Below are positions 12,039 to 30,875 of a stretch of 64,000 nucleotides of DNA, piece by piece. A program made the translations under genes and the position numbers. Below the pieces are notes generated by a model. The model was given only the letters and a program-made list of their open reading frames with translations. It ran no database searches and had not been told where the DNA came from. Position 1 is the stretch's first letter. Each line of letters opens with the position of its first letter. This stretch comes from Patescibacteria group bacterium (GTDB lineage: Bacteria; Patescibacteriota; Patescibacteriia; UBA9934; GWF2-40-263): NCBI GenBank assembly GCA_035290185.1, contig DATDUW010000022.1:1579-65578 (forward strand). The letters run 5' to 3'.

Positions 12039-12054
12039 TTTTTTGTGGAAGGAA

Positions 12055-12094
12055 ACCTCGTCCTATTTTTCTTAGGACGAGGTTTTCGTTTTTT
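12055..12094 (+). terminator. Rho-independent terminator
   Basis: ACCTCGTCCTA / TAGGACGAGG hairpin followed by TTTTCGTTTTTT. Confidence 0.7.
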
Positions 12095-12137
12095 AAAGAT
12101 TTTGTTATAATAGATCCATTCGAGATGTTAATCTGAT

Positions 12138-13034: not shown

Positions 13035-13056
13035 TTGCTCAAAAAATAGGGGGAGT

Positions 13057-15300
13057 ATGAAATTTTCCGATCTAAAAATAACTAGACAATTGATCGTCTT
13101 TTTCTTTTTTCTCCTAACTGTTCCCCTACTAGGCTTGAGTATTTTTTTCTATTTTCAAACGGTTAGGATCATCCAGGATACAAAAAATAACCTCCGCTAT
13201 GTATCTGTTATTCATGAAAATCGTCTTAATACGATTCTCCAGGGTTTTAATCGTCGTTTTGAAGACATGAGAGCAGACAGCGTTTTTCAGGATATTTTTT
13301 TGGATTTTTTGAACGTTCCAAGTAAGGAGAACCGATTAAAGGTAGAGACGGCCGTAGTGAATCGACATATTTCTGATGGTTCTTTTCCGGATTTTTTTCT
13401 CTTGAATCAGGACGGGACCGTTGTTTTTTCTTCTGATCAGAGGGAAGGGTTGGGTCGAAACCACGCATCCGATTCTTTTTTTACCACAGGAAAAGCAGCA
13501 CGCAGATGGCATATCCAAAAATATGGAACAACGGACGTTTTTGCATATCTTTCCGGTCCGTATATTAGAGAAAATCAGTTTTTTGGCGTTTTGGTTCTAC
13601 GAGTAGATTTTGCTCCCTTCCTTTCTTTGCATGAAAATTTTAAAACCCTGAATAAGACGGGAGAACTGCAACTTGTCGAGGCTAATGGGAACGGATGGAG
13701 ATTGATTACGCCCACAAGATTTTCTACAACCACCAACCCCTCGTCGCTCACAGACCGACTTTATGACCAGACCATGGTCTTAGAAAACAATTTTTTTGAG
13801 GCCAAAGATTATCGAGACAGAAACGTTTTTGCCATTTTGCGTCTTTTGGATGAAAAAAACCTTGGGTTAATAGTAAAAATTGACAAAGACGAAGTTTTTC
13901 TTCCACTCCTCCTTTTGGCAAGGTCCATCATTTTGATTTTCTCCTTCCTATTGGCGTTCGGTCTTGTTCTAATTTTTTTCTTCTATGTGCATGTCACCAG
14001 GCCATTGGCGCAATTGGTACGTGCAACCAAAAGCATTGAAAAAGGCGAGAAGAATTATGACCTACCAGCTGAATCAAAAAATGAGATCGGGATTCTGGTT
14101 ACGGCTTTTCAAAGAATGACGAGAAATCTTTTATTGTCGAACTCCCATCTTGAAAAAAGGGTTGTTGAGCGAACGCTCATGTTGAATAAGCGCATTGCAC
14201 AAATTAACAACGAAAAGGTTAAAGACGATGCGTTATTGTCGAGCATTGGCGAAGGATTGATTGTCACGGATAAAGAAGGTGTCATTCTTTTAGTCAATCA
14301 AGCTACAGCAACAATGTTTGGAATTAAGAAAGAAGATGTTAGTGGAAGTCATTTCTCCGAGGTTGTCCTGCTGAAGAATATTTCGGGACGTCCTATGCCT
14401 TTTCTTGCCGGTCATCCGGTATTTGAGGCTTTATCTGGTGCTAAAAAAACAGTGGGTGTTGAATTTATCTCCGAACGGTTTGGTGGTGGAAGCGATGGGA
14501 GCGGTTTTTTTCCGCTTGCCCTTACAGCAACCCCCATTGTTGTGAATGGGCAGACGATCGGATCGGTGGCAATCGTCCGCGACATTACGAAAGAAAAGGA
14601 GGTGGATCGCATGAAATCGGAGTTTATTTCTATTGCCTCACACCAATTGAGGGGTCCGATTGCTTCCATCAAATGGTATGGAGAACTCCTTGGAAAGCAA
14701 AAGGGGACTTTTCAAAAGGAATCACGCGAGTTTGTTGAACGCATCAATGTGTCCACCGAGCACCTAATTTCGCTTGTGAACGACTTTTTGAACGTTTCGC
14801 GTATTGAATCCGGAAGTTTAAAGAGCGAACCAAAAACGATTCACCCTTCGGTTTTGGTGAAAAATATCGTCGAAACGTACCAACAGGAGATTGAAAAGAA
14901 AAAAATAACCGTTCGGATAAAGAACAGGTCGTTGTTCAAGGATTTTTTTATGGATCCGGAGATGATAAGGGAGATTTACGCCAATCTTATTGCCAATTCT
15001 ATTAAATATTCTAAAAGATGTGGGAATATTTCAATACGACTCTCTGATGAAAGCGAGACAACGGATTTGGTGTTAGAAATCAAGGATGACGGCGTGGGTA
15101 TTGCCAAGGAGGAACATGGAAGGATTTTTACGAAATTTTTCCGCGCCAGCAATGCGCTGGAAGGAGGATATAAGGGTACGGGGCTTGGTTTATACACCGC
15201 GCAGATGCTTGCAACGCAAATTGGTGGTAGAATTTGGTTTGAATCGGAAAAAGGTCATGGTGCGACCTTTTGGGTTCGCCTTCCCAGGAAGGCCAAATAA
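13057..15300 (+). CDS. Sensor histidine kinase (TM, HAMP, PAS, HisKA, HATPase_c)
   Basis: ORF 12907-15300; the Met at 13057 has an AGGGGGA Shine-Dalgarno sequence. Two TM segments; H-box SHQLRGPI; N-box NLIANSIKYS; G-boxes DDGVGI and GTGLGLY. Confidence 0.85.
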   Translation: MKFSDLKITRQLIVFFFFLLTVPLLGLSIFFYFQTVRIIQDTKNNLRYVSVIHENRLNTILQGFNRRFEDMRADSVFQDIFLDFLNVPSKENRLKVETAVVNRHISDGSFPDFFLLNQDGTVVFSSDQREGLGRNHASDSFFTTGKAARRWHIQKYGTTDVFAYLSGPYIRENQFFGVLVLRVDFAPFLSLHENFKTLNKTGELQLVEANGNGWRLITPTRFSTTTNPSSLTDRLYDQTMVLENNFFEAKDYRDRNVFAILRLLDEKNLGLIVKIDKDEVFLPLLLLARSIILIFSFLLAFGLVLIFFFYVHVTRPLAQLVRATKSIEKGEKNYDLPAESKNEIGILVTAFQRMTRNLLLSNSHLEKRVVERTLMLNKRIAQINNEKVKDDALLSSIGEGLIVTDKEGVILLVNQATATMFGIKKEDVSGSHFSEVVLLKNISGRPMPFLAGHPVFEALSGAKKTVGVEFISERFGGGSDGSGFFPLALTATPIVVNGQTIGSVAIVRDITKEKEVDRMKSEFISIASHQLRGPIASIKWYGELLGKQKGTFQKESREFVERINVSTEHLISLVNDFLNVSRIESGSLKSEPKTIHPSVLVKNIVETYQQEIEKKKITVRIKNRSLFKDFFMDPEMIREIYANLIANSIKYSKRCGNISIRLSDESETTDLVLEIKDDGVGIAKEEHGRIFTKFFRASNALEGGYKGTGLGLYTAQMLATQIGGRIWFESEKGHGATFWVRLPRKAK

Positions 15301-15321
15301 TCTTTTTCTTTATCTATCCCT

Positions 15322-15699
15322 ATGAAAGGACTAAAGAAGTTTATCCTCATTGTTGAGGATGATAGTTTTTTGTCAGATATCTATCAAAATCAGCTAAAAC
15401 AAGAGGGTTTCGAGACCGAGGTATCGACTGATGGAAAAAGTGCTTTGAAAGTTTTAGAAAAAAAACGGCCGAATTTGATCGTCCTTGACATGATTATGCC
15501 GGGCATGAATGGTTTCGATTTTCTCGAAATTATGCGTAAAGAGAAGAAAAACGATGATATTCCAGTTTTTATTCTTACCAATCTCGGACAGGACGAGGAC
15601 AAGAAGCGTTGTCGCGAGCTTCGCGAATGTTCCTATTTCGTCAAGACGGAAATTTCTATTGATGACGTCGTGAGGAAAATTAAAGAACAGGTTTCATAG
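15322..15699 (+). CDS. Single-domain response regulator (CheY-like receiver)
   Basis: Receiver domain motifs (ILIVEDD...LIVLDMIMPGMNGFDFL...K). No output domain. Confidence 0.8.
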   Translation: MKGLKKFILIVEDDSFLSDIYQNQLKQEGFETEVSTDGKSALKVLEKKRPNLIVLDMIMPGMNGFDFLEIMRKEKKNDDIPVFILTNLGQDEDKKRCRELRECSYFVKTEISIDDVVRKIKEQVS

Positions 15700-15729
15700 C
15701 GATTCAAAAACGAGGGAATTTTAAAAGAT

Positions 15730-16818
15730 ATGTTGGGGTGGTCATCGGACTTTTTGAAGAAAGGAATGCACCTCTTTCCGATCAAATCGTTCGACCTGAT
15801 TGTCACAACCAAAAGCCTGTCTGTTATGCTTGGATCCGGCTTGACGGTTGTCGATGCTTTGGATATTTTAGCGGAACAAGGCCGTGGACCGCTGAAATCG
15901 GTTTTGACGCGCGTTGTTGATCGCATGAAGGCCGGACAGACGTTTTCAAATTCTTTAAAAGGCGAAAAAGGGGTCTTTAGCCCCGTGTTCATTGGCTCGG
16001 TGGAAATCGGAGAAAGGACCGGAACCTTGACAAAAGATCTAGAGCGTTTATCGGTTCAGATGGAACACGATTTTTCCGTGCGGAGAAATTTGAAATCAGC
16101 CACGGTTTATCCAGCTTTTGTCCTCACGGTTATGCTGGTGGTTGCTTTCGGTGTAGCAAAATTTGTTCTTCCGCGATTTGCCGATACCGTTCGTTCCTTT
16201 GGGGCAGAGCTCCCTTTGAGTACGAGGATTGTCGTAATTTTAGCGGAGTTTTTTGAAAGTTACGGTTCGATTTTTGCTTTGATTCTTTTGTTTTTTATCG
16301 CGGTCATTGTCGGTTTGTCGCGACGAGAATCTGCGCGGCGCCTTCTTCACCCCCTTTTTTTGAGGATACCGATCATAAATCTTTTTTTCCACGATGCCAG
16401 TCGAGCTGTTCTGTTTCGTTCTTTTGGAACCCTGCTTGACAGCGGGATTCCCATCCAAGAGGCTTTAGAAATTCTAAAACGCACGACGTCTAACTATGTC
16501 TATGCCCAGGCCATAGGAGACATCAACCGCAGGATCGTAGCCGGTCGTAGGTTGACGGAACTCTTGTCTTTTCATCCGCGTCTCTTTCCAAAGATGGTTC
16601 AAAATATGATCGGAGTGGGCGAGAGTTCTGGAGAGATGGGGAGGATTTTTTCTTTTTTGGCTCAATATTTTGAAGAGAGAATTGAAGTCCGTTCAAAAAA
16701 TTTTTCCTCCCTTTTTGAACCGATCCTTTTGCTCATTGTCGGTGCGGGCGTATTATTTTTGGCTCTTTCCGTGATCTTGCCGATCTATGATATTACGTCG
16801 TCTATTTCCATCAAATGA
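15730..16818 (+). CDS. pilC: Type IV pilus platform protein PilC (GspF family)
   Basis: Two GspF repeats with conserved E-x-G/ER-TG and GESSG motifs; three TM segments. Confidence 0.85.
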   Translation: MLGWSSDFLKKGMHLFPIKSFDLIVTTKSLSVMLGSGLTVVDALDILAEQGRGPLKSVLTRVVDRMKAGQTFSNSLKGEKGVFSPVFIGSVEIGERTGTLTKDLERLSVQMEHDFSVRRNLKSATVYPAFVLTVMLVVAFGVAKFVLPRFADTVRSFGAELPLSTRIVVILAEFFESYGSIFALILLFFIAVIVGLSRRESARRLLHPLFLRIPIINLFFHDASRAVLFRSFGTLLDSGIPIQEALEILKRTTSNYVYAQAIGDINRRIVAGRRLTELLSFHPRLFPKMVQNMIGVGESSGEMGRIFSFLAQYFEERIEVRSKNFSSLFEPILLLIVGAGVLFLALSVILPIYDITSSISIK

Positions 16819-16840
16819 TGTATTTTGAGGATAGCAATTT

Positions 16841-17839
16841 ATGTTTGATCATTTTTTTTCTGGTATTGGCGTTGACATCTCAAATCGTCATGTTCGTTTT
16901 GCGCGTGTTTCTCTCTTTCAAAAGATCCGGGGATTGAAAGAAATAGTCTTGCCAAGCGGGTTGATGGAGGACGAAATGGTGGCCCATCAAGAGGAGATTA
17001 GGAAGCGCATTGAGCGTGGTCTTGAGGAATGGCATTTGCCGAAAGGTTCATTTCGAACCACGATGCTGATTCCTGAATCAAGGATTTTTTTTACGAACGT
17101 TCTTTTAGAGAAACAGGCACCAGCCATAATGGAAGATGAGGCAAAACATCTGGCACAAAAGGATATCCCCATCCCTTTTGAACAGGCCTTTCTTACTGTT
17201 TCCAAAGGGGAAATTTCCCTTGAAGGACGATTGTTTAATGTCTACGCCTGTCAGAGAGAAATCATCAATGGTTTGAAGGCCGTGGTTGAAGTTCCGTCTT
17301 TTCGATTAATCGCCATGGAGACGAACAGTAAGGCGTTGTTGCGCCTTTTTAACCATTTCGCCTCAAAAAAGGAGAGACAGAAAGTTAAAAAAAGTCTGAT
17401 TGGTGTTGTCGATATCGGATACGATTGGACGACGGTTTCCATTTATTCGTCTTTTGGGTCCCTCTTTTTTTCTAGAACATTGTCACACAGTCACCTGGTT
17501 CAGAAAGACGGGGACGTTCCACCCCTCCCACCAGAGACCATTGGGTTGGTTCTTGAGACGATGAGAGAAACAAAGGATTTTTTTTCTAAACAAGGAAAAG
17601 AGATAGCCCTCTTTTTGTTGGGGGGGGTTGAGGCAACGCAGAAAGGCGTTCTTAAGGCCTGTCAACGAGAAGAGAAGACTCTCCCTCCCACAATCCCCAT
17701 CGGTCAGAAGTTACAGATTTCAGGTTTTGCCGCTGATGATATTCACCGTTTTGGACCAGCTATTGGTGCAGCCTATCGATCGCTCTTTCCACAAAAGTAC
17801 GCCCATCAGCACAATTTTTTTGATTCTTCCAATTCATGA
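16841..17839 (+). CDS. pilM: PilM-like actin-fold pilus assembly protein
   Basis: Sits between pilC and pilD. N-terminus IGVDISNRHVRFARV resembles the PilM/FtsA phosphate-1 motif. Weak by sequence alone. Confidence 0.45.
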   Translation: MFDHFFSGIGVDISNRHVRFARVSLFQKIRGLKEIVLPSGLMEDEMVAHQEEIRKRIERGLEEWHLPKGSFRTTMLIPESRIFFTNVLLEKQAPAIMEDEAKHLAQKDIPIPFEQAFLTVSKGEISLEGRLFNVYACQREIINGLKAVVEVPSFRLIAMETNSKALLRLFNHFASKKERQKVKKSLIGVVDIGYDWTTVSIYSSFGSLFFSRTLSHSHLVQKDGDVPPLPPETIGLVLETMRETKDFFSKQGKEIALFLLGGVEATQKGVLKACQREEKTLPPTIPIGQKLQISGFAADDIHRFGPAIGAAYRSLFPQKYAHQHNFFDSSNS

Positions 17840-17861
17840 TTTTTCGCCACCACCAGATAGT

Positions 17862-18647
17862 ATGTTTTTTTCCTTAGGGGTTTTTTTTATCGGTTCCGTC
17901 TTGGGTAGCTTTCTTTCTTCCTTGGCCAATCGAGAGAAAAAGAATGAATCAAATTTGTTTGGTCGCTCTCATTGTGTCGAGTGTAGAAAAATGTTGCTAG
18001 CGAGAGACCTTATCCCCCTTATCAGCTTTTTTCTTCTCAAAGGTCGTTGTCGTTTCTGTCACCGACCGATCGGTTGGAGAGAACCCGTGGTCGAAATCGC
18101 GGTTGGTTTTCTCTTTTTGGTTGTCTGGTGGGTTCATGGAAGTGAAGGAATCGATGTGCCTCTTATTCGTGACCTTATTTTCACGACTTTTCTGTCCCTC
18201 CTTTTTTTAACAGATGCCTATGCAGGCGTTCTTCCTCATCGATTTACCATAACAGGTATTTTTCTTGCCGTCGGATTTCATTTCTTTGTTGGTATCGCTT
18301 CAATGAGTACCCTGTTTTTTACTATTCAAAATTTTTTTTTCGGCATGATGGTCGGCGGTGGATTTTTTGCTTTACAGTACTATGTATCACAAGGGCGTTG
18401 GACAGGTGGTGGAGACATTGGTATGGGGATACTTCTCGGAGCTATTCTTGGATTTTGGTCTAGCCTGTGGGCGCTTGCCCTCGCCTATATTTTAGGTGCC
18501 TTCTGGGCAATTTTTTTGTTGTTAAACAAAAAAATAGATGTAAAAGCCCAAATTCCTTTTGGTCCATTTCTTGCCACAGCCACGTGGATTTTTTTGTTGC
18601 TTTCCCAGGTGTCGAATAGCGGACTTTACGATTTTTTACGATTTTAG
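17862..18647 (+). CDS. pilD: Prepilin peptidase PilD (A24 family)
   Basis: ORF 17628-18647; internal Met at 17862 follows the upstream stop. N-terminal TM, cytoplasmic tetracysteine zinc motif (CVEC...CRFC), and polytopic membrane body with conserved Asp. Confidence 0.85.
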   Translation: MFFSLGVFFIGSVLGSFLSSLANREKKNESNLFGRSHCVECRKMLLARDLIPLISFFLLKGRCRFCHRPIGWREPVVEIAVGFLFLVVWWVHGSEGIDVPLIRDLIFTTFLSLLFLTDAYAGVLPHRFTITGIFLAVGFHFFVGIASMSTLFFTIQNFFFGMMVGGGFFALQYYVSQGRWTGGGDIGMGILLGAILGFWSSLWALALAYILGAFWAIFLLLNKKIDVKAQIPFGPFLATATWIFLLLSQVSNSGLYDFLRF

Positions 18648-18751
18648 CACGATCTCTAGACAATTTTATGAAGGCATAGTACTATTTTCCAAGGAAAAAT
18701 GATTTCTTTTTTTGTCAAAAGTTCCTTTTTTAAGAATTTAAATTAACACGT

Positions 18752-19234
18752 ATGCGCAAGGATTTTCAGAAAGGTTTCACCCTTATCGAACTGCTTATCG
18801 TAATCGCCATCATCGCGATTTTGGCGGCTGTTGTATTTGTCGTTCTTAATCCGACTCAACGTTTCTCGCAGGCTCGCAATGCACGCCGCCAAAGCGATGT
18901 GGAAAATATTGTTGCGGCCCTCAAAATTTCTCAAGTGGACAATAATGGCAGTTATCCATCAGCAGTTTCAACACTAACGAACGGGAAATTTTATGAAATA
19001 GGGACAGCTACGACTGGTTGTGATGCTGGTTGTACAACAAAGACCACGGAAGGGTCCTGTGTGGACTTGACTGCTGGGTTGGTGACAGGCGGGTATCTTG
19101 GAAGCATTCCCATGGAACCGACCAGCGGGACAGCTTCCAAAACCTTATATTACCTCTCAAAAAATGCCACAGGAACAATTGAAGTCGGGGCTTGTACCCC
19201 AGAATTAAGTACCGCTATTTCCGTTATTCGATAA
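18752..19234 (+). CDS. Type IVa major pilin
   Basis: N-terminus MRKDFQKGFTLIELLIVIAIIAILAAV is a canonical class III signal. C-terminal Cys pair forms a disulfide loop. Confidence 0.9.
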   Translation: MRKDFQKGFTLIELLIVIAIIAILAAVVFVVLNPTQRFSQARNARRQSDVENIVAALKISQVDNNGSYPSAVSTLTNGKFYEIGTATTGCDAGCTTKTTEGSCVDLTAGLVTGGYLGSIPMEPTSGTASKTLYYLSKNATGTIEVGACTPELSTAISVIR

Positions 19235-19256
19235 TTTCATTTTTAATATCTATTCT

Positions 19257-19655
19257 ATGTCAGAATTTGAACATCATTCTTCTGATGAGGTGGCACAAGA
19301 AGAAAAGAAAAATAACGTAAGAGATTTTTATCTTACGTTGCAAGAAAAAGCTGAAAAATTGGGATGTGTAGTGAGGTTTCCGGAAATGGAGCAAGATAAA
19401 AAAGTGAAAGACACAGCCGAAAGCAAGCTAGTCATTGAAAAGGATGGTGTTTATATTTTATTTAATGGTAAGACAATAGAAGAGGTTGCTAACAAAATTG
19501 GAGAAGAAGAAAAAAGTTCAAATCTTCTGGGAGAGCTTGTTAGAGGCTGTGGTGAAGATTTTGAATTTGACTCTGTAGCACTAAATAAACATGAATCTGG
19601 AGTAATAGGCAAAGATGGAAAAATTAGATCCATGCCAAATAGTTTGAGGACCTAA
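19257..19655 (+). CDS. Hypothetical acidic protein
   Basis: 132-aa ORF directly downstream of the pilin gene; no recognisable domain. Confidence 0.4.
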   Translation: MSEFEHHSSDEVAQEEKKNNVRDFYLTLQEKAEKLGCVVRFPEMEQDKKVKDTAESKLVIEKDGVYILFNGKTIEEVANKIGEEEKSSNLLGELVRGCGEDFEFDSVALNKHESGVIGKDGKIRSMPNSLRT

Positions 19656-19675
19656 CTAGTAGATACGTCTCGATC

Positions 19676-19870
19676 ATGTTCTGGATTGCAGTCGTTGGCT
19701 GGGTTTTTTTTACGATTCCTCTCCTGGCTTTTTTCGTCTTCAGCCTATGGATGATCAGCGAGGCGAGGAAGGATGATGATCAAATTGGCTCATTCATCGG
19801 CCTCCTCTTTTTGATTTGGGTGATTGGAATTGTTCTCCTTGCGGTTTCCTATCTTTCAAAGATGTTGTAA
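19676..19870 (+). CDS. 64-aa two-TM small membrane protein (copy 2)
   Basis: About 85% amino-acid identity to the 1295-1489 product, with long identical DNA stretches (tggatgatcagcgaggcga.gaaggatgatgatcaaattggc; cttgcggtttcctatctttca). Confidence 0.6.
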   Translation: MFWIAVVGWVFFTIPLLAFFVFSLWMISEARKDDDQIGSFIGLLFLIWVIGIVLLAVSYLSKML

Positions 19871-20046
19871 ATTCGTCTTGAAGTTTTTTTCTTTCTATAC
19901 TAGGGTGGGGTAAACTTAAATTTTAAGTCTATGAGAGATGCGGGAGGTCATCCTCAAGAAGTTCATCCGCTTCTGCTTTTTCTGGGTTGACCCTAGGCAG
20001 CGGAGGCAAAGCAAAAAACGATAAAAATAAATTATTCTGAAATCCT

Positions 20047-21372: not shown

Positions 21373-22431
21373 ATGAAGATGTTGTTGACCTTGGCAGGAA
21401 AGTCCTTTGAAAAGCCCGACATGGGGCCGAACAACACCCTCGCAGAGTTCCAGGTTTCGGCAGTTGGGAATGGAGAGTTGATCTTTGTCGAGGATAAAGG
21501 GAAGAGGATTTTTGGGGCTGCCACAAAGAGGCCTCTTGTCCTCGGTGAATTCAGTGAGATCGACGGAATTGAGCCGTTCGAAATCAATCTCCAGAACGCA
21601 GGCACCTTCCAGATCATCCTCGACACAGCCAACCGGAACCTCTGGAAGGTCAAGTTGGAGGAGGTTTCGCCGGAGGAGCTCGAGGATCGGAAAAACGCCA
21701 AGACCGGGAAATCCCTCCTCAAGGGTTTCGGGGGAAGCTTCCCGATCTCGGGCGAGGTCACGGCACACCAGAAGGATGGCGACGTATACCAGATCGCGCT
21801 GCCCACCTGGGCACTGCCGGTGGCCGTCATCGGTCTCCTGCTCCTCGGCGGAATCCTCGTCTCTCAGGTCTTCGGGACCGATAACGGCGTCGTCGGGGCG
21901 ATCACCGCCAGCACCAATGTGATCCACGGGGATCTCACACTGGAAGACAGCAGCGGCGGCCGGGTCAAGACCATGGCCGGGATGATGGAGGAGATCCGGC
22001 TGTCGACGTCCTCCACCGCGACCAACACTGGCAGCGCAGCCAGTGCCGCGTCTGAGACAGCGACAGCGGTCGCTGAACTCAAGGGAGCCCTTGGCAAGAA
22101 GGTCGCGCAGGAGCCGACCCTCGTTCTCATGGCTGCGGACGCCTGGAAGGCCCAGGATACGGACGGCGATGGGGTGACCAATCTTCTCGACGCCTGTCCC
22201 AAAGACCCGGCAAAGGGGCAGAGCCTCTACGCCGGGTGTCCGAATCCCGAGGCCCTCATCAAAGGGGCCAAGGCCGTGAAAAGGGCCAAGGCCGACGCGG
22301 AAGGGAACATGGTCTTGGTGCGTGGTCCGGCCACGTTCTTAGCCAAGGCTCTCCCCCCGGCCACGCCCGGCGGTAAGTCGCCTGGATTTGACCCGACGTC
22401 CGTCAAGGGCGTCGTGGTCAAGGCCCGCTGA
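21373..22431 (+). CDS. Membrane protein encoded in a GC-rich island (central TM, TSP3-like DTDGDG Ca-binding motif)
   Basis: Strong Shine-Dalgarno sequence AAGGAG 9 nt upstream. The 352-aa ORF spans the island. TM segment WALPVAVIGLLLLGGILVSQVF. DTDGDGVTNLLDACPKD motif. Bounded by a promoter upstream and a hairpin downstream. Confidence 0.55.
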   Translation: MKMLLTLAGKSFEKPDMGPNNTLAEFQVSAVGNGELIFVEDKGKRIFGAATKRPLVLGEFSEIDGIEPFEINLQNAGTFQIILDTANRNLWKVKLEEVSPEELEDRKNAKTGKSLLKGFGGSFPISGEVTAHQKDGDVYQIALPTWALPVAVIGLLLLGGILVSQVFGTDNGVVGAITASTNVIHGDLTLEDSSGGRVKTMAGMMEEIRLSTSSTATNTGSAASAASETATAVAELKGALGKKVAQEPTLVLMAADAWKAQDTDGDGVTNLLDACPKDPAKGQSLYAGCPNPEALIKGAKAVKRAKADAEGNMVLVRGPATFLAKALPPATPGGKSPGFDPTSVKGVVVKAR

Positions 22432-22677: not shown

Positions 22678-22965
22678 ATGAAAGAAGATCAAATTTTTTT
22701 TGAAATAAAAAAACGCCTGGGAGAGATTTTACCGAAAAGCCATTGTGGATTTTTATTCGGTTCTTTTGCAAAAGGGACGGCCATGAGGGGTTCTGATGTT
22801 GATATTGCCATTGAAGGTCCGTCTCCTCTCCCTTTTGAAATCTATCTTCGCTTGAAACAGGCCCTTGAAGATATTCCGACCTTGCGAAAAATCGATCTGG
22901 TGGATTTGCAGAACGTCAGCAGCCGTTTTCGCGAAGAAGTTTTGACTTATGCAACCTCTTTATGA
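22678..22965 (+). CDS. Minimal nucleotidyltransferase (MNT) antitoxin-like protein
   Basis: GS-x9-13-DxD Pol-beta NTase signature (GSFAKGTAMRGSDVDIAI); 95 aa. Confidence 0.75.
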   Translation: MKEDQIFFEIKKRLGEILPKSHCGFLFGSFAKGTAMRGSDVDIAIEGPSPLPFEIYLRLKQALEDIPTLRKIDLVDLQNVSSRFREEVLTYATSL

Positions 22966-23330
22966 AGCATCCTCTTTTTCAATCGTACAAAGAAGCCTTG
23001 AACCGTCTCAAAGAGGCACTGGGTCGGGAAAAAGATGATCTGATTCGCGATGCGGCCATCCAACGGTTTGAATTTACGGTTGAACTGGCATGGAAATCGA
23101 TGCAGAAGCGTTTGCAGGAAGAACAGATTTTGTGTCGGTCTCCAAAAGAATGTTTACGGGAGGCTTTTGCTTTCGGACTCATTGAGGATGATCCCGGATG
23201 GATTCGGGCTATGGAGGACAGAAATCTTACCTCTCATACGTACGATCAAAAAATAGCAGAAGAAATTTTTGTCCGTTTGTCAGAATATATCAGGCTGTTC
23301 GACGAACTTGAAAAAAAATTGGAGTCATAG
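22962..23330 (+). CDS. HEPN-domain protein (NTase substrate-binding, HI0074-like) toxin partner
   Basis: R-x4-HxY HEPN motif (RNLTSHTY). Overlaps the MNT gene stop (ATGA), the classic MNT-HEPN operon arrangement. Confidence 0.75.
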   Translation: MKHPLFQSYKEALNRLKEALGREKDDLIRDAAIQRFEFTVELAWKSMQKRLQEEQILCRSPKECLREAFAFGLIEDDPGWIRAMEDRNLTSHTYDQKIAEEIFVRLSEYIRLFDELEKKLES

Positions 23331-25045
23331 TGGACGAAAATGAATCTATGTCCCAAGCGCTCTATCGAACCTATCGTCCCCAAACGTTTGCAGACCTGAC
23401 GGGTCAGGAGCATGTGAAACGAACGCTCCAGAACCAGCTCAAAATCGGGCGGGTGGCCCATGCCTATCTTTTTACTGGTCCGCGCGGAGTAGGGAAGACC
23501 ACAGCCGCTCGGCTGCTTGCCAAGGCCGTGAATTGTCAGGGGATTACGGAAGGGAAAGATAGCCTTCCAGAACCCTGTAATGTCTGTTCAAGCTGTCAGG
23601 AAATCACGGGCGGGTCATCGCTGGACGTCTATGAGATCGATGCGGCTTCTAATACCGGCGTGGATCATGTACGCGAGCACATTATTGAGAGTGTCCGTTT
23701 TTCTCCGAATAAGGCGAAGATGAAGGTGTTCATTATCGATGAGGTCCACATGCTTTCGACCTCGGCTTTTAATGCGCTGTTAAAGACGCTTGAGGAACCT
23801 CCGGCTCACGCCCTGTTCATCTTAGCAACAACGGAAATTCACAAGGTCCCAGCCACGATCATCAGTCGTTGTCAGCGGTTTGATTTTCATCGTATTCCCT
23901 TTCAGGAAATGACCGATCGACTCAAGGCGATCTGTGCGGCCGAGGGAGTGACCATTGAGGATGGCGTCTTGCGCGAGCTTGCGCGACAATCCGAGGGGTG
24001 CGAGCGCGATGCGGAGAGTCTGCTCGGCCAACTCATGGCGCTCGGAGAAAAGACCATTGGAGCTGAACAGGCTTCTCTCGTGCTGCCCATTGCCCAAACA
24101 TCCTCTGTGGTGTCACTTCTGGAACTGCTTCCGGAGCACCGAACAGCGGATGCGGTTCGACTTTTAAACGACTATCTCGAGCAGGGAATGGATGTTGGCG
24201 CGTTTTTAGACGCGTCTGCCGAAGCTCTACGAACCGCTCTTTTGCTCAAGCTTGGGGGCATGGATTCTTTTCATCCTCCGTATGATCCAGAAACGGTTTT
24301 GCGACTTAATACCCTTGGACAAAAATGGAGTTCATCGATTTTAAGCCGAGCTATTGAAATGTTTTTGGAGGCCAAGCGGTCTAGTCGTTTGGATTCAATT
24401 CCGCAGGTGTCAGCCGAAATCGCTATTGTTCGGTTGTGCGAGGGAGATGGAGGAAATACGCCGCCGGTGGCAACCCCCCCCAGCCCCCCCTTGGGAAGGG
24501 GGGGAGACGTCGAGAAACCACCTTCAGCCTCCCTTGGGAAGGGGGGAACAACTCGTCCCCCATCCCCCTTTGTAAAGGAGGGGCCGGGCCTGTCCGACAT
24601 AATAGAGCAGAAGGGGGTGGTTGACGTACATCAGGGACATGGAGAAGTCGGGGCTATCTCTCCTTCTTCTGATTCTCCTCCGATCAAAGATGTGGCCCTT
24701 GGTGATATCCCCGTTCTTGATCTTCAAGACGTTATGCGCAAGTGGCCCCAGGTATTTGCCAAGGTGCAGGAATGTAATGCGTCCCTGCCGCTCATTCTCC
24801 AGAGCGGGGAGCTGGGAACCGTCGAAGGGAATACGGTGGAAATTCGTTTTGCTTATTCGTTGCATGCGGAGACGTTGAATCGCGCGAAGAATCGGGATTT
24901 AGTGGAAAAGATTCTTCAAGACGTGCTGGGTGCGTCCGTGCGTGTGCGGGCTGTTCACGATCCTGACGCATCCGAAACTCGAAAAACGTCCGCGGATGGG
25001 GCGGTAGCTGCGATTTTGCAGAATTTCGGGGGGCAGGTGATTTGA
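23330..25045 (+). CDS. dnaX: DNA polymerase III subunit gamma/tau
   Basis: AAA+ clamp-loader motifs (GPRGVGKTT, Zn module C-x-x-C...C-x-x-C, DEVHML, SRC motif IISRCQRF). Start is either GTG 23330 or ATG 23348. Pro/Gly-rich linker before the C-terminal domain. Confidence 0.9.
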   Translation: MDENESMSQALYRTYRPQTFADLTGQEHVKRTLQNQLKIGRVAHAYLFTGPRGVGKTTAARLLAKAVNCQGITEGKDSLPEPCNVCSSCQEITGGSSLDVYEIDAASNTGVDHVREHIIESVRFSPNKAKMKVFIIDEVHMLSTSAFNALLKTLEEPPAHALFILATTEIHKVPATIISRCQRFDFHRIPFQEMTDRLKAICAAEGVTIEDGVLRELARQSEGCERDAESLLGQLMALGEKTIGAEQASLVLPIAQTSSVVSLLELLPEHRTADAVRLLNDYLEQGMDVGAFLDASAEALRTALLLKLGGMDSFHPPYDPETVLRLNTLGQKWSSSILSRAIEMFLEAKRSSRLDSIPQVSAEIAIVRLCEGDGGNTPPVATPPSPPLGRGGDVEKPPSASLGKGGTTRPPSPFVKEGPGLSDIIEQKGVVDVHQGHGEVGAISPSSDSPPIKDVALGDIPVLDLQDVMRKWPQVFAKVQECNASLPLILQSGELGTVEGNTVEIRFAYSLHAETLNRAKNRDLVEKILQDVLGASVRVRAVHDPDASETRKTSADGAVAAILQNFGGQVI

Positions 25046-25358: not shown

Positions 25359-26885
25359 TTATCCGATTTTTTTCACTACTCCCTTGTCCGCATTGACTTC
25401 GACCAGATCGCCGTCATGCAGAACTTTGGTGGCGATTTTGGTTCCGACGACGCACGGGATGTGGAGTTCGCGACTGACAATGGAGGCGTGACAGGTAAGG
25501 CCTCCTTCGTCCGTGACAATAGCAGCAGCTTTTTTCATGGCAGTCACAATACTCGGAGTCGTTGCCACGGAGACAAGAATGTCTCCAGGCTGCATTTTTT
25601 GCATGTCCTCCGGCCTGTTGATAAGGCGGACGCTCCCCGTCGCTGTTCCCGGAAAGGCCGTGGAGCCGGAAAGTTCGGAAACGGAGGCCATCTCTTCGGA
25701 TGCTGATTGCAGGACATGGAGGGTGGAAAATTGTTTGGCCTCATTTCCAGAGATGACGATCGTTTCCCTCTCGTCCATGGAAACGAGGTGGTGTTTGTAC
25801 TGACGATCAAGGACAGATGGGTCAATTTTTCCTTCCAGAAGCGCTTCCCGAATCTGTTTTTGAGTTGCGGAACGTGCGTGTTTAAGAGAGACATCGAATC
25901 GTCGGCTGAACTCGCGGAAAAAGGATTCCATGTGGAAATAGGAATGGGATTGGTAATCCTTGCGCCGCGGCTTGGCCCAGACGTATTCGTTTACAAGAAG
26001 AAGAAGCCGTTTGGTCGATTCGTCCGGCCGGAGCTGTTCAAGATATTTTTTGCGTTCTTCGGCTAATCGGCATCGTTCCTCTTTTTTCCGTTGAGTCTCT
26101 CCTTCCGGTTGGATCCTTTTATGGAGGAGGTCTTGAAGGAACTCTACAAATTGCATTTCACCAAACGCCGGACCGGCGTAGACGTAGTAGACCCATCCAA
26201 ATTTTTCCGCATGTCCCCGAAGCGCTTCAGAAATTTCCGGAGCGGATTGTTGGAGCAGGGAAGGAATCTCGTTGGGTAGATGGTTTTCTAGCACGTCGCG
26301 GCAGGCCTTGTTTGAAAAACAACGCGGAGCAAGTTCGAGGAGGGCATCTTCCTGGTCTAAGGCAAAAGAGTTTTTCAATGGCGTTGTAAAGACCGCAAAA
26401 GCCCTTGCGGCTTCTTCCGGCGAAAGGCGAGAAGCGAGAAAAGTTTTCAAAAAAGATTCGAGAAACGAAACACCGCCGACTTCAAGCAGAGGAAGGAGAA
26501 TGCCGACGGCGTATTGACGCGCTTGGAGGTTGGCAAATCGTTCATAGAAATTCCAAAGGTCGGTTCCGCTCCATGAGGAAAGATTTGCGGAGCGGGCTTG
26601 GGATGTGAAACGATTCATCTCCTGTCCCCATTGTTCTGAACATTCGATGAGACGGTCGAGTTCTTCCGGATTTTGTTCGATCCGTTTTTGGAGGATTGCG
26701 CGATCTTTATTCCAGAGATCCATGTCCAGCAGATAGGCGATCGTGTCCTCGTGTGATTCAATCGCATAACCCGGATTGGGAAGATCAAAAAGCTCCGGCC
26801 AGAGGAAACCGGATTGGATCCAAATTTCATTTCGCATGAGCGGCGAATGGAAATCATGGGCAGCGGGGAGCAGTTTATTTTCCAT
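25359..26885 (-). CDS. PEP-utilizing-enzyme mobile (phosphohistidine swivel) domain protein with uncharacterised N-terminal domain
   Basis: C-terminal ~80 aa match the swivel domain (GDILVSVATTPSIVTAMKKAAAIVTDEGGLTCHASIVSRELHIPCVVG). The ~420-aa N-terminal region has no recognisable motif. Confidence 0.75.
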   Translation of the reverse strand: MENKLLPAAHDFHSPLMRNEIWIQSGFLWPELFDLPNPGYAIESHEDTIAYLLDMDLWNKDRAILQKRIEQNPEELDRLIECSEQWGQEMNRFTSQARSANLSSWSGTDLWNFYERFANLQARQYAVGILLPLLEVGGVSFLESFLKTFLASRLSPEEAARAFAVFTTPLKNSFALDQEDALLELAPRCFSNKACRDVLENHLPNEIPSLLQQSAPEISEALRGHAEKFGWVYYVYAGPAFGEMQFVEFLQDLLHKRIQPEGETQRKKEERCRLAEERKKYLEQLRPDESTKRLLLLVNEYVWAKPRRKDYQSHSYFHMESFFREFSRRFDVSLKHARSATQKQIREALLEGKIDPSVLDRQYKHHLVSMDERETIVISGNEAKQFSTLHVLQSASEEMASVSELSGSTAFPGTATGSVRLINRPEDMQKMQPGDILVSVATTPSIVTAMKKAAAIVTDEGGLTCHASIVSRELHIPCVVGTKIATKVLHDGDLVEVNADKGVVKKIG

Positions 26886-26888
26886 AGA

Positions 26889-27974
26889 CTAAGATAGTCG
26901 GCGAACAACTCCTTTATGTGCGTTTACTTCGACGAAATCCCCATCCTTCAGAACCTTCGTCGCGATTTTTGTTCCGATGATGCAAGGGACTCCAAGCTCG
27001 CGAGACACGATCGCGGCATGACACGTAATTCCGCCTTCGTCTGTAATGATTGCGACCGCTTTTTTGATGGCGGGGAGATACCACGGCGTTGTCATGGGAG
27101 CGACAAGAATGTCCCCTTGTTCAACTTTTCCAAGTTCTTCCCGATTAAAAACGATCTTCACTTTCCCCTTTGCCATTCCCACGTTTGCGGGATTTCCTTT
27201 TATTTCTCCAGGCTGGCTAACAGCGGTTTGATCCTGCGGAAGGATGTAGCTCCTTTTTGAAAGCTCTTTCCCCAAATCATTTTCAAAAATCAATTGTCCG
27301 TCGATATAAGCGAACGGTATCGCACGCCGTTTTTCCAGGTCATTTTTGTTTAACTTTCCACTCTGAAGGGACTCAAGGAGTTCGGAATGACTGACGTATC
27401 TTGTGTAAACGTCGTCCCATCCTTGCAGCTCAAATAAGCGATGGATGATATGGAGGATCGTTTCTATGGAACGATCAAAGAACGGGTCGGTCTCCGTCCG
27501 CCATTTTCGACATTGATTAAAAACGTTTTCGCTGAAAAGATGGGTTGTTTCCTGCCACAGGGGAAGAAGGTAGGTTGTTACAATGCCTGGGAAGCCTTGG
27601 ACAAACGAAGCCTCCATTCGACGAAGGGCATCCAAGGCCTCTTGGGTCGTTGCCAACGGCCACTGTCGGATGTCGGCACGTGTTTCCAACGCTGCTTTTT
27701 GTCTTTCATAAGTTTCCGGAAGTCTTGCTTCATTTCCTTCGATCCATTTCGCAAGACCAAAAGGAATTTCCTCCATGCGTTTAGAATCCCGATAGCACTC
27801 TACCGTCCCTTTCGTAAACAGAAAGAGGTTTTCTGGAAAAGGGAATCCAAAGAAACACTCCGTTTCATTTGTGATTCCTTCATACCAGCTTTCCACGCCG
27901 ATAAGAGGAGCCTCACGGGTGATGATTTTTACGAAGGGAACGAGAGGTTGATTTTCTGAGGGAGGAGATTTCAT
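26889..27974 (-). CDS. Second PEP-utilizing mobile-domain protein (paralogous C-terminus, different N-terminal domain)
   Basis: C-terminus GDILVAPMTTPWYLPAIKKAVAIITDEGGITCHAAIVSRELGVPCIIG. The N-terminal ~270 aa are unrelated to those of the 25359 gene. Confidence 0.75.
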   Translation of the reverse strand: MKSPPSENQPLVPFVKIITREAPLIGVESWYEGITNETECFFGFPFPENLFLFTKGTVECYRDSKRMEEIPFGLAKWIEGNEARLPETYERQKAALETRADIRQWPLATTQEALDALRRMEASFVQGFPGIVTTYLLPLWQETTHLFSENVFNQCRKWRTETDPFFDRSIETILHIIHRLFELQGWDDVYTRYVSHSELLESLQSGKLNKNDLEKRRAIPFAYIDGQLIFENDLGKELSKRSYILPQDQTAVSQPGEIKGNPANVGMAKGKVKIVFNREELGKVEQGDILVAPMTTPWYLPAIKKAVAIITDEGGITCHAAIVSRELGVPCIIGTKIATKVLKDGDFVEVNAHKGVVRRLS

Positions 27975-28016
27975 AGGGAAGAAGATTTGGTTTTGTTCTG
28001 TTTGGCCTTCAGTAGA

Positions 28017-28994
28017 CTAGAGTGTCGTCACTGGCCTTGACTGCGTGATAAAGAATACCCCAGCCTCCTGGGCCCATTCGATGTCGCAGGGGAAGCCGTA
28101 GTGTTTTTCGATTCCTTGGCAGATGTCCGCGAGTTTGCGGATCTGTCCCCCATCGATTTTTTGGCGAGTTCGTTTGTCTTGCGGAACCCGCACCTGTTCA
28201 TTGCCTCCGTCTTCTTTGCGAATCAGCCCGCCTGCGTCCTCTCTTGGACTCCGGCGGGCAAGCATGATCTCCTGCTCGCTGACGTTGACATCCAGAAGCG
28301 TCCCATCCCGCTTGTCCAGGACATAGGAGTCGGGCGTGACCACACCACCGACAATGTACTCGCCCAAGCCCCAACAGGATTCGATGATCATTTGATTCGG
28401 ATCTTTCGTAACGGGATGTACGGTAAAGCAGATGCCGGAAATTTCAGAGTTCACCATTTTTTGGATAACCACGGCCACGGAGACATGACTCTTCCGCATG
28501 CCTTTTTCATTGCGATAGACAATGGCCCTTGGGGTAAACAGAGATGCCCAGCATTTTTTGACATTGCCCAGCAGGGTTTTTTCGGTCGTGTTGAGGTAGC
28601 TTTCGAGCTCCCCGGCCCAGCTAGCTGTGGAGGAATCTTCGGCCGTGGCAGAGGAACGCACGGCAACGAATTTTGCATTGAGCTCTCGGAAGGAGGTGAG
28701 GACCTCTTCCTCAATGTCGCGTGGGAACCGGGCGTCATGGATAAGGTCATGGATGACGCGCGAGGCCCGCTCCACCGAGGCCACGTCTTCGTAGTTAACC
28801 TGATCGAGCTGGGCTTCGATTTCTTGAACCAGATTCGTCTCGCGTAGGAATTGGTCAAAGGAGGGAGCCAGCACAACAAACCCTGGAGGAACAGGAATTC
28901 CTGCCTGGGTCATCTCTCCAAGTGATGCTCCTTTGCCTCCGGCTAGGTGCGTATCGTTTTTGGAGAGGTCGGAAAAGGGGCGGGTGAATGGCAT
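28017..28994 (-). CDS. PPDK_N-type ATP-grasp nucleotide-binding domain protein (PEP synthase / pyruvate phosphate dikinase N-terminal domain as a stand-alone protein)
   Basis: N-terminus FSDLSKNDTHLAGGKGASLGEM is the PPDK_N hallmark. Length (325 aa) fits the ATP-grasp domain only. Confidence 0.8.
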   Translation of the reverse strand: MPFTRPFSDLSKNDTHLAGGKGASLGEMTQAGIPVPPGFVVLAPSFDQFLRETNLVQEIEAQLDQVNYEDVASVERASRVIHDLIHDARFPRDIEEEVLTSFRELNAKFVAVRSSATAEDSSTASWAGELESYLNTTEKTLLGNVKKCWASLFTPRAIVYRNEKGMRKSHVSVAVVIQKMVNSEISGICFTVHPVTKDPNQMIIESCWGLGEYIVGGVVTPDSYVLDKRDGTLLDVNVSEQEIMLARRSPREDAGGLIRKEDGGNEQVRVPQDKRTRQKIDGGQIRKLADICQGIEKHYGFPCDIEWAQEAGVFFITQSRPVTTL

Positions 28995-29018: not shown

Positions 29019-29990
29019 TTAGACTCGTACCTCCCGTTCCAAGTCGTCTTTTTCTTTGATGATTTCCAACAGCTGTTCTTTGGTTAGGTTCCATTGGTTA
29101 TCATTGAATCGAACGCGGATTTCTTCCGTGCCGGTTTTATTTTTTCCGAGAACGACCGAAAATCCTTGATTAACATCAAAGCCGTTGGTCGAAGGAAGGG
29201 AAGCAATGAATTCATGAATAGCCTTCTCGGCTGCTTCTTTTGGATTGTGTCCTTCGCGTTCGGCTTTGGCCTCTTCTGCCTTCTCAATCGCCTTCATGAG
29301 AAAGCATTCCGTGACGGTTTGATGCGATCCCATAAAACGCTGAAGTTCATTATGAAATTTTTCGTATTTTTTAGGCTCCTTTTTCGCAATACGTTCCCAG
29401 TTTTCCAGGGCTCGCAGATATCCGTAAACGAGATCAGCGACATTTCCGGCTGCCCGGGAATAAGAAGTGGATTCGTGATCTTGGTTCTCACGGATAATAT
29501 GGTCGCTATCATTACGTAGAAAGTTCATGCAGTCTTTCGATTTCAGAAATCGATCATAGCCTTCTTTTTTAAAGGCCGGGGATCCGTCAAAAGAAAAATC
29601 CAGCGCTTTTCTTTTTCCACCTTTTTTCTGTCCCCTCAGTCCTTGCTCTTCAAGATATTTTTCAACAGTTTTTTCAATCTCGGATAAGGCCATTTCAGGC
29701 GGAATTTCTTCCGTGCTGGCAAACATCTGATGGTGGGCAGTTTCGAGCGCCCGATTTCGCCGTGATCCGTATGCTACCGCAACTTCCGGTTGAGGATTTT
29801 TGTTTGCACCAGTTGCCTGCGCAGCCACCCTTCCTTCCGGAGTCAGAAGAATGTCGTAGTCTGTTTCACCTTCCTTTTTATCTGCCTTAATGCTGTGCCT
29901 AAAAAATTCCAACCGAATCGTTGGTTGGGGGGCTTGTTCCGTTTCTCTTGCAGAAATGGTTTCGGGAGGAGTTGAACGTTCGCCTGTCAT
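29019..29990 (-). CDS. Histidine phosphatase superfamily-like protein (divergent)
   Basis: FFRHS followed by LTPEGRVAAQA resembles the RHG...LTxxGxxQA catalytic core of PGAM/SixA-type phosphatases. The long C-terminal extension is uncharacterised. Confidence 0.4.
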   Translation of the reverse strand: MTGERSTPPETISARETEQAPQPTIRLEFFRHSIKADKKEGETDYDILLTPEGRVAAQATGANKNPQPEVAVAYGSRRNRALETAHHQMFASTEEIPPEMALSEIEKTVEKYLEEQGLRGQKKGGKRKALDFSFDGSPAFKKEGYDRFLKSKDCMNFLRNDSDHIIRENQDHESTSYSRAAGNVADLVYGYLRALENWERIAKKEPKKYEKFHNELQRFMGSHQTVTECFLMKAIEKAEEAKAEREGHNPKEAAEKAIHEFIASLPSTNGFDVNQGFSVVLGKNKTGTEEIRVRFNDNQWNLTKEQLLEIIKEKDDLEREVRV

Positions 29991-30083
29991 AGAAAAAGAA
30001 GTTCAGATGAGATAGAATTTGATCAACTATAAACAAATTCAACTTTCGAAACAATAGAACCGTTGTCCGTTCAACACAACACT

Positions 30084-30875
30084 ATGAATAAAATGAGCCT
30101 GGAAACGTTGGGGTATCTCGGGTTGGATCCTGAACAAAGCAAGGTCTATGCGGCTTGCTTGAAGTTGGGAAAGGGAAAGGCCCAGGAAATTGCAAAAACC
30201 GCAAACATTCATCGCACCGTGGTTTATCAGCACCTGGAAAAGCTGGCAGAGCGCGGGCTTGTCCACGTCTCCGTTGTCAAAGGAACGCGTGAGTATGCGG
30301 TCGCAAACCCGAACGTGATCCTTTCGATTTTTAAGCAGCGCGAAAAGGAGATCGAAGCCGTGCTTCCGCTTCTGCTTTCTCTGTATGCAGCCGGGCATCC
30401 GTCCAAACCGCAGTTTCGTTTTTATACGGACATTGCCGGAGTCCGCACGGTCCTTGAGGAAGTGCTTGAGAGCTCCTCAAAATTTTATCGGCACATCGGG
30501 GCTTTTTATGACAGGGAATTCCTTCTTTTGTTGGGATTGGATTTTTTGAAAGACTGGTCAGAGCGGCGTATAGCCCGCGGCGTAGACCATCGATCCCTTA
30601 GGCCGGAAGGGCGCAAGCAGCTTGATAGAGAAATGGACGATATTTTTATCGGAAGAGGGAAAAAATTTCTCCGCGACTATCGGTATCTTTCCATTCCCGC
30701 GGATCTCCCGATCCTCATTTATTTGTTTGATGAAAAAGTGGCTTTCGTGGGTGCTCGCGTGGGGCATGTGTATGCGGCCGTCCTTGAGTCAAAAGACGTG
30801 TATGACGTTTTGGGTCATATCTTCGACCGACTTTGGGAAACAGCAGAAGTGCCGGAAAAGGAAATGGAAAGGTAG
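30084..30875 (+). CDS. TrmB-family HTH transcriptional regulator
   Basis: N-terminal wHTH (LGLDPEQSKVYAACLKLGKGKAQEIAKTANIHRTVVYQHLEKLAERGLV) typical of TrmB. ORF 30063-30875; the likely start is an internal Met. Confidence 0.65.
   Translation: MNKMSLETLGYLGLDPEQSKVYAACLKLGKGKAQEIAKTANIHRTVVYQHLEKLAERGLVHVSVVKGTREYAVANPNVILSIFKQREKEIEAVLPLLLSLYAAGHPSKPQFRFYTDIAGVRTVLEEVLESSSKFYRHIGAFYDREFLLLLGLDFLKDWSERRIARGVDHRSLRPEGRKQLDREMDDIFIGRGKKFLRDYRYLSIPADLPILIYLFDEKVAFVGARVGHVYAAVLESKDVYDVLGHIFDRLWETAEVPEKEMER

Follow-up and report, generated by a model that had tools for sequence, protein, structure and literature searches.

A probable split dikinase of the rifampin phosphotransferase type in Patescibacteria, with one ATP-grasp subunit and two paralogous acceptor subunits

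Four adjacent minus-strand genes, here designated D, A, B and C, in a 64,000-nucleotide stretch of a Patescibacteria group bacterium genome (GenBank assembly GCA_035290185.1, contig DATDUW010000022.1, positions 1,579 to 65,578; hereafter the window) probably constitute an operon for a split, multi-subunit small-molecule dikinase of the rifampin phosphotransferase (RPH) type, in which A supplies the ATP-grasp subunit and B and C are paralogous acceptors. The core of this proposal, a phosphotransferase divided so that one ATP-grasp protein serves two acceptors, is supported by sequence homology and comparative genomics, while phosphotransfer in trans to both partners, the stoichiometry of a dikinase and the role of D would follow the precedents of RPH, PPDK and the two-component dikinase HpeHI. 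The genes and the domains that they encode are located as follows (positions are those of the window).

Gene D, 29019-29990, minus strand: 323 amino acids, histidine-phosphatase-superfamily-like, 24 nucleotides upstream of A.
Gene A, 28017-28994, minus strand: 325 amino acids, free-standing PPDK_N ATP-grasp nucleotide-binding subunit.
Gene B, 26889-27974, minus strand: 361 amino acids, ending in a phosphohistidine swivel domain.
B residues 1-254, 27213-27974, minus strand: short helical substrate-binding domain (AlphaFold2, Foldseek, hhalign to C).
B residues 255-361 and stop, 26889-27212, minus strand: swivel domain with predicted catalytic His319 in GGITCHAAI.
Gene C, 25359-26885, minus strand: 508 amino acids, ending in a phosphohistidine swivel domain.
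C residues 1-400, 25686-26885, minus strand: full-size substrate-binding domain resembling the rifampin (RIF)-binding domain (AlphaFold2, Foldseek).
C residues 401-508 and stop, 25359-25685, minus strand: swivel domain with predicted catalytic His466 in GGLTCHASI.

An earlier note on this DNA had described a free-standing PPDK_N ATP-grasp protein followed at 25359-28994 by two same-strand proteins that each end in a phosphohistidine swivel domain, with N-terminal portions of about 270 residues in B and about 420 in C. The open reading frame (ORF) listing, the translations and Pfam bear out this description, including the sizes of the two N-terminal portions. A, B and C, from a metagenome-assembled genome (MAG), are intact ORFs, each with its own start and stop, separated by only 42 nucleotides between A and B and 3 nucleotides between B and C. 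Neither a terminator nor a promoter consensus lies between D and A, and D is probably the first gene of the operon; the consensus scan of D-A-B-C was, however, uninformative, as it yielded no enrichment over shuffled sequences.

Gene A corresponds over its full length to PF01326 (PPDK_N; E 5e-96, profile positions 3-311 of 328) and carries the motifs GGKG (K21) and VRSSATAED (R113). Its C-terminus, ...SRPVTTL, is the exact domain boundary found in fused homologues, and the protein is 56% identical to residues 7-314 of one of them, P0013. The best partial matches of A in NCBIfam are to the N-terminus of phosphoenolpyruvate (PEP) synthase (326 bits) and to RPH (250 bits), both far under the whole-protein cut-offs. 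The swivel domains of B and C are matched by PF00391 (PEP-utilizers) at residues 285-355 (E 3e-25) and 432-502 (E 3e-24), respectively, and the motif GG(L/I)TCH is invariant in both families: H319 among the 61 homologues in the family alignment of B (hereafter A2), and T464, C465 and H466 among the 56 homologues in that of C (hereafter A1). The Pfam scores of A and of both swivels lie far outside what chance would give.

The N-terminal domains of B and C, which the earlier note had taken to be unrelated to each other, proved to be homologous. BLASTP aligns C297-507 with B146-360 at 36% identity, profile-profile comparison of A1 with A2 (hhalign) aligns C317-508 with B171-361 at 100% probability, and a separate hhalign comparison of the N-terminal parts pairs C7-134 with B17-140 (probability 80%, E 1.5e-5). 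AlphaFold2 models of C (predicted local distance difference test score, pLDDT, 93.5; predicted template modelling score, pTM, 0.91; built from A1) and of B (pLDDT 95.4, pTM 0.92; built from A2) share the same order of elements, namely strand, helix, beta-hairpin, helical bundle, long helix, small hairpin plus helix, and swivel. The modelled N-terminal domain of B runs from an N-terminal strand-helix-hairpin through a helical bundle to a small hairpin plus helix, and lacks about 160 residues of the bundle of C (about C135-296); judged by these models, B is a shortened version of C. When the models were compared with the PDB by Foldseek, RPH-Lm from Listeria ranked first for both proteins. The match of C (5FBU, 5FBT, 5HV1; E 5e-14, query TM-score (TMq) 0.57, about 590 columns) spans the RIF-binding domain and the swivel, and that of B has an E-value of 2e-11 and a TMq of 0.28-0.36. 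Structure prediction of the two N-terminal domains, which the earlier note had proposed as a check, thus returned helical folds like the RIF-binding domain of RPH and no TIM barrel. The description of these domains as unrecognisable holds for Pfam, in which nothing matches B or C ahead of the swivel, but not for AlphaFold2 and Foldseek, by which they are recognised as RIF-binding-domain-like.

Sequence comparisons point in the same direction. When 1.84 billion representatives were searched by phmmer with C residues 1-400, 768 clusters were returned at E <= 1e-3, and for four relatives of about 605 amino acids (P0315, P0356, P0362 and P0347) the NCBIfam matches reach deep into the central domain of RPH, PigC and RedH. 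Residues 354-599 of P0315 match positions 611-863 of the RPH model, residues 285-601 of P0362 match positions 551-881 of the PigC model, and C itself is 33% identical to P0315 over 424 residues, so that P0315, P0362 and P0356 provide a transitive link in sequence from C to the RPH/PigC central domain. The same four relatives have, ahead of the substrate-binding and swivel module, a winged-helix DNA-binding domain at the N-terminus (e.g. MLDKLFGSKTRV..LSLFF...); such fusions suggest that some members couple ligand binding or phosphorylation to transcription.

Conserved residues in the substrate-binding domains allow a catalytic role to be proposed. The long helix of C (residues 289-330) contains W303, K305, P306, R308, K309, Q312 and E320, all invariant in A1, within a conserved basic motif (W303-A-K305-P-R307-R308-K309-D-Y-Q312 ... 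E320), and R18/N19, close to the N-terminus, vary hardly at all. In B, R20 and R159 are invariant and occupy places corresponding to those of C (BLASTP, A2), R159 being situated on the equivalent of the long helix. In RPH, the second phosphotransfer needs Arg666-Glu667 and Lys670, Gln337 lies near the start of the RIF-binding domain, and the Arg-Glu...Lys block is kept even in distant clades (PMC4844700). Through P0315, the basic motif of C falls at roughly positions 657-670 of the RPH model, a correspondence that is transitive and approximate, and the motif is likely to be equivalent to the Arg666-Glu667...Lys670 block. Attempts at a residue-level alignment with RPH gave no match for the central region of P0315 in a phmmer search against the PDB, and profile A1 meets RPH only from residue 708.

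Natural fusions provide Rosetta-stone support, at the level of sequence, for one ATP-grasp domain serving several modules. In P0013, from Nanoarchaeota, A is followed by C, with the junction exactly at the C-terminus of A (the same ...TTL), while in P0211 and P0122 A is followed by a B-type module. P0020 joins a C-type module to a short one, P0260 combines one PPDK_N domain with three swivels, and P0241 combines one with four. Giant ORFs and proteins of 1500 to more than 3600 amino acids (L046, L030, L011, P0241, P0260 and P0246) consist of serial substrate-binding/swivel modules, occur mostly in DPANN archaea and in some cases possess a single ATP-grasp domain; the longest, at L046:6483-17504, is an ORF of more than 3600 codons built of many modules.

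Comparative genomics indicates that the three-gene module, although real as proposed, is no isolated oddity but a small instance of a large array family of Patescibacteria and DPANN archaea, with D probably included. When GTDB species-representative genomes were scanned with A1, at least 595 encoding stretches were found, and the best 79 loci (18 kb or less each) were examined by searching six-frame ORFs with profiles for the C N-terminal domain, the B N-terminal domain, the swivel, A and D. All 79 come from Patescibacteria or DPANN archaea (Nano-, Woese-, Pace- and Micrarchaeota). Many third-party annotation (TPA) MAG loci (L001, L003, L010-L014, L018, L022, L028 and others) are titled 'uncultured Gammaproteobacteria' or 'uncultured Methanosarcinales', which look like placeholder or wrong labels. 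More than 1500 homologues of C were detected, and the B-type family, of about 355-365 amino acids, is widespread in the same two groups. Most loci are tandem arrays of swivel-domain paralogues on one strand. The number of swivel modules per locus has a median of 4 and does not exceed 10, and 306 of the 308 ORFs for swivel or ATP-grasp proteins share the strand of the seed. Examples include L014 (A-C-B-C-C-B-C), L025 (8 modules) and L053 (10 modules plus A), and one MAG has arrays on two contigs (L025 and L049) with 11 modules in total. Exactly one ATP-grasp gene is present in 31 loci and two or more in none of the 79; the gene usually stands at an array end (last in 17 loci and first in 7) and is fused in four cases. 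The proposed layout of one shared ATP-grasp protein with two alternative substrate-binding/swivel modules, built like RPH, is therefore supported by the Foldseek matches to RPH-Lm, by the fusions and by the limit of one ATP-grasp gene per locus.

The paralogues within an array have diverged unevenly. Their swivels are 55% identical at the median, and of 486 pairs of N-terminal parts only 192 give a significant alignment, with a median identity of 24%. Conservation of the swivels alongside diverging pockets is what would be expected if a single shared partner were the docking site of every swivel. When the N-terminal parts were grouped at E <= 1e-60, the orthogroups had 57 members spread over 57 loci, 25 over 23 and 20 over 20, or essentially one per locus, and sequence comparison thus indicates that the array paralogues are ancient.

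Genes for predicted phosphatases recur beside the arrays, as revealed by all-against-all clustering of the flanking ORFs in the 79 loci. D itself matches Pfam His_Phos_1 below the cut-off (E 9e-4) and displays the sequence hallmarks of histidine phosphatases (FFRH, SRRNRALETA and, later, GSHQ). The D family, with its strand+RH motif, occurs in or beside arrays in eight loci including the window, and two further His-phosphatase-like families with a beta-strand+RH motif adjoin arrays in nine and seven loci. A HAD-family hydrolase (PF00702) is found in 18 of the 79 loci with 19 genes, 17 of them on the same strand at a distance of no more than 150 bp, and 11 inside arrays. In the HAD superfamily, the Asp+2 position separates phosphatases from dehalogenases, phosphonatases and ATPases. 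The array HAD genes (L048:14086-14703 and those of 17 other loci) mostly encode D-x-Y-G (Tyr at Asp+2), or another non-Asp residue, in place of the phosphatase signature DxDxT, and the encoded proteins may not be simple phosphatases for this reason. Regulator genes recur as well, with TrmB-like regulators in six loci including the window and HTH_10 regulators beside archaeal arrays in seven. In P0129, a protein of 516 amino acids, a short B-type module is followed by a C-terminal NUDIX hydrolase domain (PF00293, E 6e-20), which might hint at nucleotide-linked molecules among the substrates. It may be speculated that the phosphatase and NUDIX partners, together with the basic pocket residues, fit phosphorylated or otherwise anionic metabolites.

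On this basis, a catalytic cycle can be proposed by analogy with the characterized enzymes. A would bind ATP, and the swivel of B or C would dock on A in trans, where its histidine (H319 in B, H466 in C) would take the beta-phosphate with release of AMP and Pi; the overall reaction would be that of a dikinase, ATP + X + H2O -> AMP + Pi + X-P. The charged swivel would then swing back onto its own substrate-binding domain, where R18, K305, R308 and K309 of C, or R20 and R159 of B, may help to transfer the phosphate to the hydroxyl of a small molecule or may serve in carbonyl activation. The similarity of the two swivels would allow both proteins to dock on the same A, and B and C may act on different substrates because their pockets differ, that of B being smaller by the missing segment of the bundle. 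D would probably remove the phosphate later in the pathway or reset the system.

Several observations weigh against a split dikinase of this kind. Outside its swivel, B resembles RPH weakly (TMq about 0.3), and the catalytic Arg-Glu...Lys block of RPH cannot be mapped residue by residue, C carrying K-x-x-R-K-D...E in its stead. Where at least 1.5 kb of the examined DNA extends beyond the array ends, an ATP-grasp gene flanks 12 of 20 multi-gene arrays and one of nine singleton C-type genes. Because the remaining 8 arrays and 8 singletons have no ATP-grasp gene in their flanks, the partner of A-less arrays can be encoded at another site of the genome or can be some other protein. At L029:12307-14715 (minus strand), a canonical PEP synthase with PPDK_N, swivel and PEP-utilizers_C domains lies 1.7 kb from an A-less array of three modules. 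Finally, it is not obvious how a phosphatase encoded within the operon fits a simple function as a kinase.

Alternative explanations were weighed against the same evidence. PigC and RedH have the same architecture as the proteins described here, and B and C could accordingly be conceived as ATP-dependent ligases or condensing enzymes, in which a carbonyl or enol oxygen is phosphorylated for attack by a second substrate and Pi is released. The partial NCBIfam matches to PigC and RedH, and those of relatives of C to positions 544-881 of the PigC model, deep in its central domain, are consistent with such chemistry. It is nevertheless unlikely, since scores of 56-70 bits fall far short of the PigC/RedH cut-offs of 1300-1350, the operon is not embedded in a biosynthetic gene cluster, and the recurrent phosphatase genes suggest a phosphorylated product that persists. 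Quite improbable, too, is an arrangement in which A serves only one or neither of B and C, the other protein acting as a phosphate shuttle or drawing on a different donor, such as the ATP-grasp domain of a canonical PEP synthase or PPDK, or PEP itself. Such an arrangement could account for the many arrays and most singleton C-type genes without an adjacent ATP-grasp gene and for the complete PEP synthase at L029, and it has a precedent in HpeH, which alone moves phosphate between substrates (PMC12167813). The existence of fusions of A with C and with B-type modules, of single polypeptides that join one ATP-grasp domain with three or four modules, and of array swivels that are far more alike than the rest of the protein, as for a shared docking partner, argues against it.

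A sensory or regulatory function, in which a ligand in the helical domain controls phosphorylation of the swivel histidine and thereby signals to transcription factors, appears very unlikely for the window proteins. The winged-helix domains of the relatives of about 605 amino acids and the TrmB-like or HTH_10 genes that adjoin some arrays are in keeping with it; however, the window proteins have no DNA-binding domain, all characterised members of this architecture are enzymes (PMC12167813, PMC4844700), and regulator genes beside operons are commonplace. The idea, raised in the earlier note itself, that A, B and C are fragments of a decayed ppsA, with diverged PEP/pyruvate-binding TIM barrels as the N-terminal regions of B and C, can practically be dismissed on the grounds of fold, domain order and conservation: although PEP synthase models give A and both swivels their highest partial scores in NCBIfam and NCBI and JGI name the relatives 'PEP-utilizing enzyme' or 'PEP synthase', the scores stay far below the PEP synthase cut-off (326 vs 598 bits for A), no PF02896 TIM barrel is detected by Pfam in A, B or C, the extra domain precedes the swivel whereas the TIM barrel of PEP synthase comes after it, the AlphaFold2 models are helical and match the RIF-binding domain of RPH, and the ORFs are intact, with abundant homologues of C, a widespread B family and invariant catalytic motifs in both.

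The split dikinase can be extended to a broader scheme, which is possible though rather doubtful, namely a hub-and-spoke, ATP-driven system in which one ATP-grasp 'charger' serves from 2 to more than 10 anciently diverged acceptors, each with its own small molecule, and dedicated phosphatases (His-phosphatase-like or HAD-like) or NUDIX domains act downstream. If true, this system would amount to at least 1% of very small genomes and could represent an ATP-dependent analogue of the phosphotransferase system (PTS) that traps or processes host-scavenged metabolites, or a battery by which toxins made by the host are neutralised. The genomes of Patescibacteria and DPANN archaea are minimal, and no role has been assigned to the majority of the proteins specific to these lineages; up to ten copies in a row and at least 11 per genome are a large investment for such organisms and imply an important unrecognised activity. 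The current labels 'PEP-utilizing enzyme' and 'PEP synthase' can introduce a spurious gluconeogenic reaction into metabolic reconstructions, while recognition of these proteins as subunits of RPH-type dikinases could reveal what the symbionts phosphorylate, be it scavenged nutrients, cofactors or host antibiotics. The arrays also offer a natural library in which the substrate pockets diverge and the catalytic chassis stays constant.

The operon lies in ordinary housekeeping surroundings. A DUF1653 gene is convergent with C, and DUF192, mgsA and penicillin-binding-protein (PBP) genes are also nearby, together with the following two genes.

TrmB-family winged-helix regulator gene, 30063-30875, plus strand, divergent from the operon: Pfam TrmB, E 1e-12.
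dnaX, 23330-25045: neighbour of the operon.

The TrmB-family gene is a possible regulator of the operon, although this inference is weak. No tRNA or Rfam matches appeared in scans of the window. C is 100% identical to P0001, which comes from a 'Patescibacteria group bacterium' MAG, so that the host belongs to the candidate phyla radiation (CPR). For B, the identical NCBI-derived protein (P0121) has 316 amino acids, or 82% of the ORF, and no precomputed PF00391 match, and the public annotation of gene B is probably truncated relative to the family consensus. Directly upstream of dnaX, at 22678-23330 on the plus strand, overlapping genes for a Polbeta/NTP_transf_2 nucleotidyltransferase (95 amino acids) and an NTase_sub_bind (HEPN-like) protein (122 amino acids) have the layout of an MNT/HEPN-type toxin-antitoxin pair. 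A 352-residue ORF at 21373-22431 (plus strand) has a weak match to the thrombospondin type 3 repeat (E 1e-4, below cut-off) and may encode a secreted or surface calcium-binding protein. The G+C content steps from 0.41-0.48 in window positions 1-20000 to about 0.48-0.54 from 20 kb on.

With respect to established families, A, B and C share the domain make-up of the RPH-type superfamily, with a PPDK_N domain in A and a C-terminal swivel with a conserved histidine in B and C. A RIF-binding-domain fold between ATP-grasp and swivel is found in C and in reduced form in B, and fused homologues are ordered A then C. Membership in any curated family can be rejected, as every score is far below the cut-off. 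Against PEP synthase (TIGR01418/PRK06464; cut-off 598), A, B and C reach at best 326, 127 and 125 bits, and against rifamycin-inactivating phosphotransferase (NF041857; cut-off 999) 250, 59 and 53 bits. The PigC/RedH models (NF052631/NF052632; cut-offs 1300-1350) give at most 235 bits for A and 71 for C, and the PRK08296 models (cut-offs 578-730) give 102 bits for B and 93 for C, in the swivel region only. The scores of B and C against curated models are confined to the swivel. A known defence system was likewise rejected, as A, B, C and D match none of the PADLOC models of anti-phage components, and so was a phage-borne element, the family being essentially absent from 2.9 million viral contigs, with one swivel-only match.

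The closest parallel to the split form is the two-component dikinase subfamily defined in 2025 for aromatic catabolism, in which HpeHI, CreHI and PpsAB consist of separate ATP-grasp and substrate/swivel proteins that are both required, form no stable complex and act in trans, and in which HpeH alone catalyses phosphotransfer between substrates in vitro (PMC12167813). The division is identical to that in the window, with HpeI/PpsB corresponding to A and HpeH/PpsA (RPH-like domain plus C-terminal swivel) to B and C, the swivel motif T/SxxGGxxxH is conserved, and a transient contact in trans is likewise expected. HpeHI, CreHI and PpsAB, however, work as 1:1 pairs on phenolic substrates of aromatic catabolism and are encoded beside carboxylase genes, whereas the window operon has one ATP-grasp protein for two acceptors (up to 1:10 in relatives), no carboxylase genes and an ultra-small genome as its setting, and no described counterpart of the truncated B form was found. 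If the proposed assignment is correct, this subfamily would be extended from 1:1 pairs to one-to-many.

RPH (5FBS/5FBT/5FBU, 5HV1; PMC4844700) shows the same order once A is placed ahead of C, namely ATP-grasp, helical substrate-binding domain and His swivel, but it is a single polypeptide of 867 amino acids specific for rifamycins. In B and C, the RIF-contacting blocks are undetectable, and in C the sequence K-P-R-R-K-D...E either stands in place of Arg-Glu...Lys or cannot be aligned with it. The clade may derive from PEP synthase: PEP synthase and PPDK have homologous ATP-grasp and swivel domains, are the closest relatives of A and of both swivels by score, and share the GGxTCHAAI motif and presumably the conversion of ATP to AMP and Pi; the window proteins differ from them in the lack of a PEP/pyruvate-binding TIM barrel, in a substrate domain N-terminal to the swivel and in their split subunits. 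The PTS (EI to HPr to many EII) follows the same logic, in that one energy-coupling protein, its His swivel homologous to those described here, feeds many substrate-specific acceptors, but the parallel is an analogy only, as the donor here would be ATP rather than PEP, each acceptor has its own swivel, and there is no HPr, EII or membrane component. A search of the literature on swivel, dikinase or PEP-utilizing proteins of Patescibacteria, the CPR or DPANN archaea found no description of such arrays, which is not proof of their absence from it. Taken together, A, B and C belong architecturally with the RPH-type small-molecule dikinases and in their split form resemble the two-component subfamily, while the one-to-many organisation, the concentration in Patescibacteria and DPANN archaea and the short B-type acceptor go beyond the known kind.

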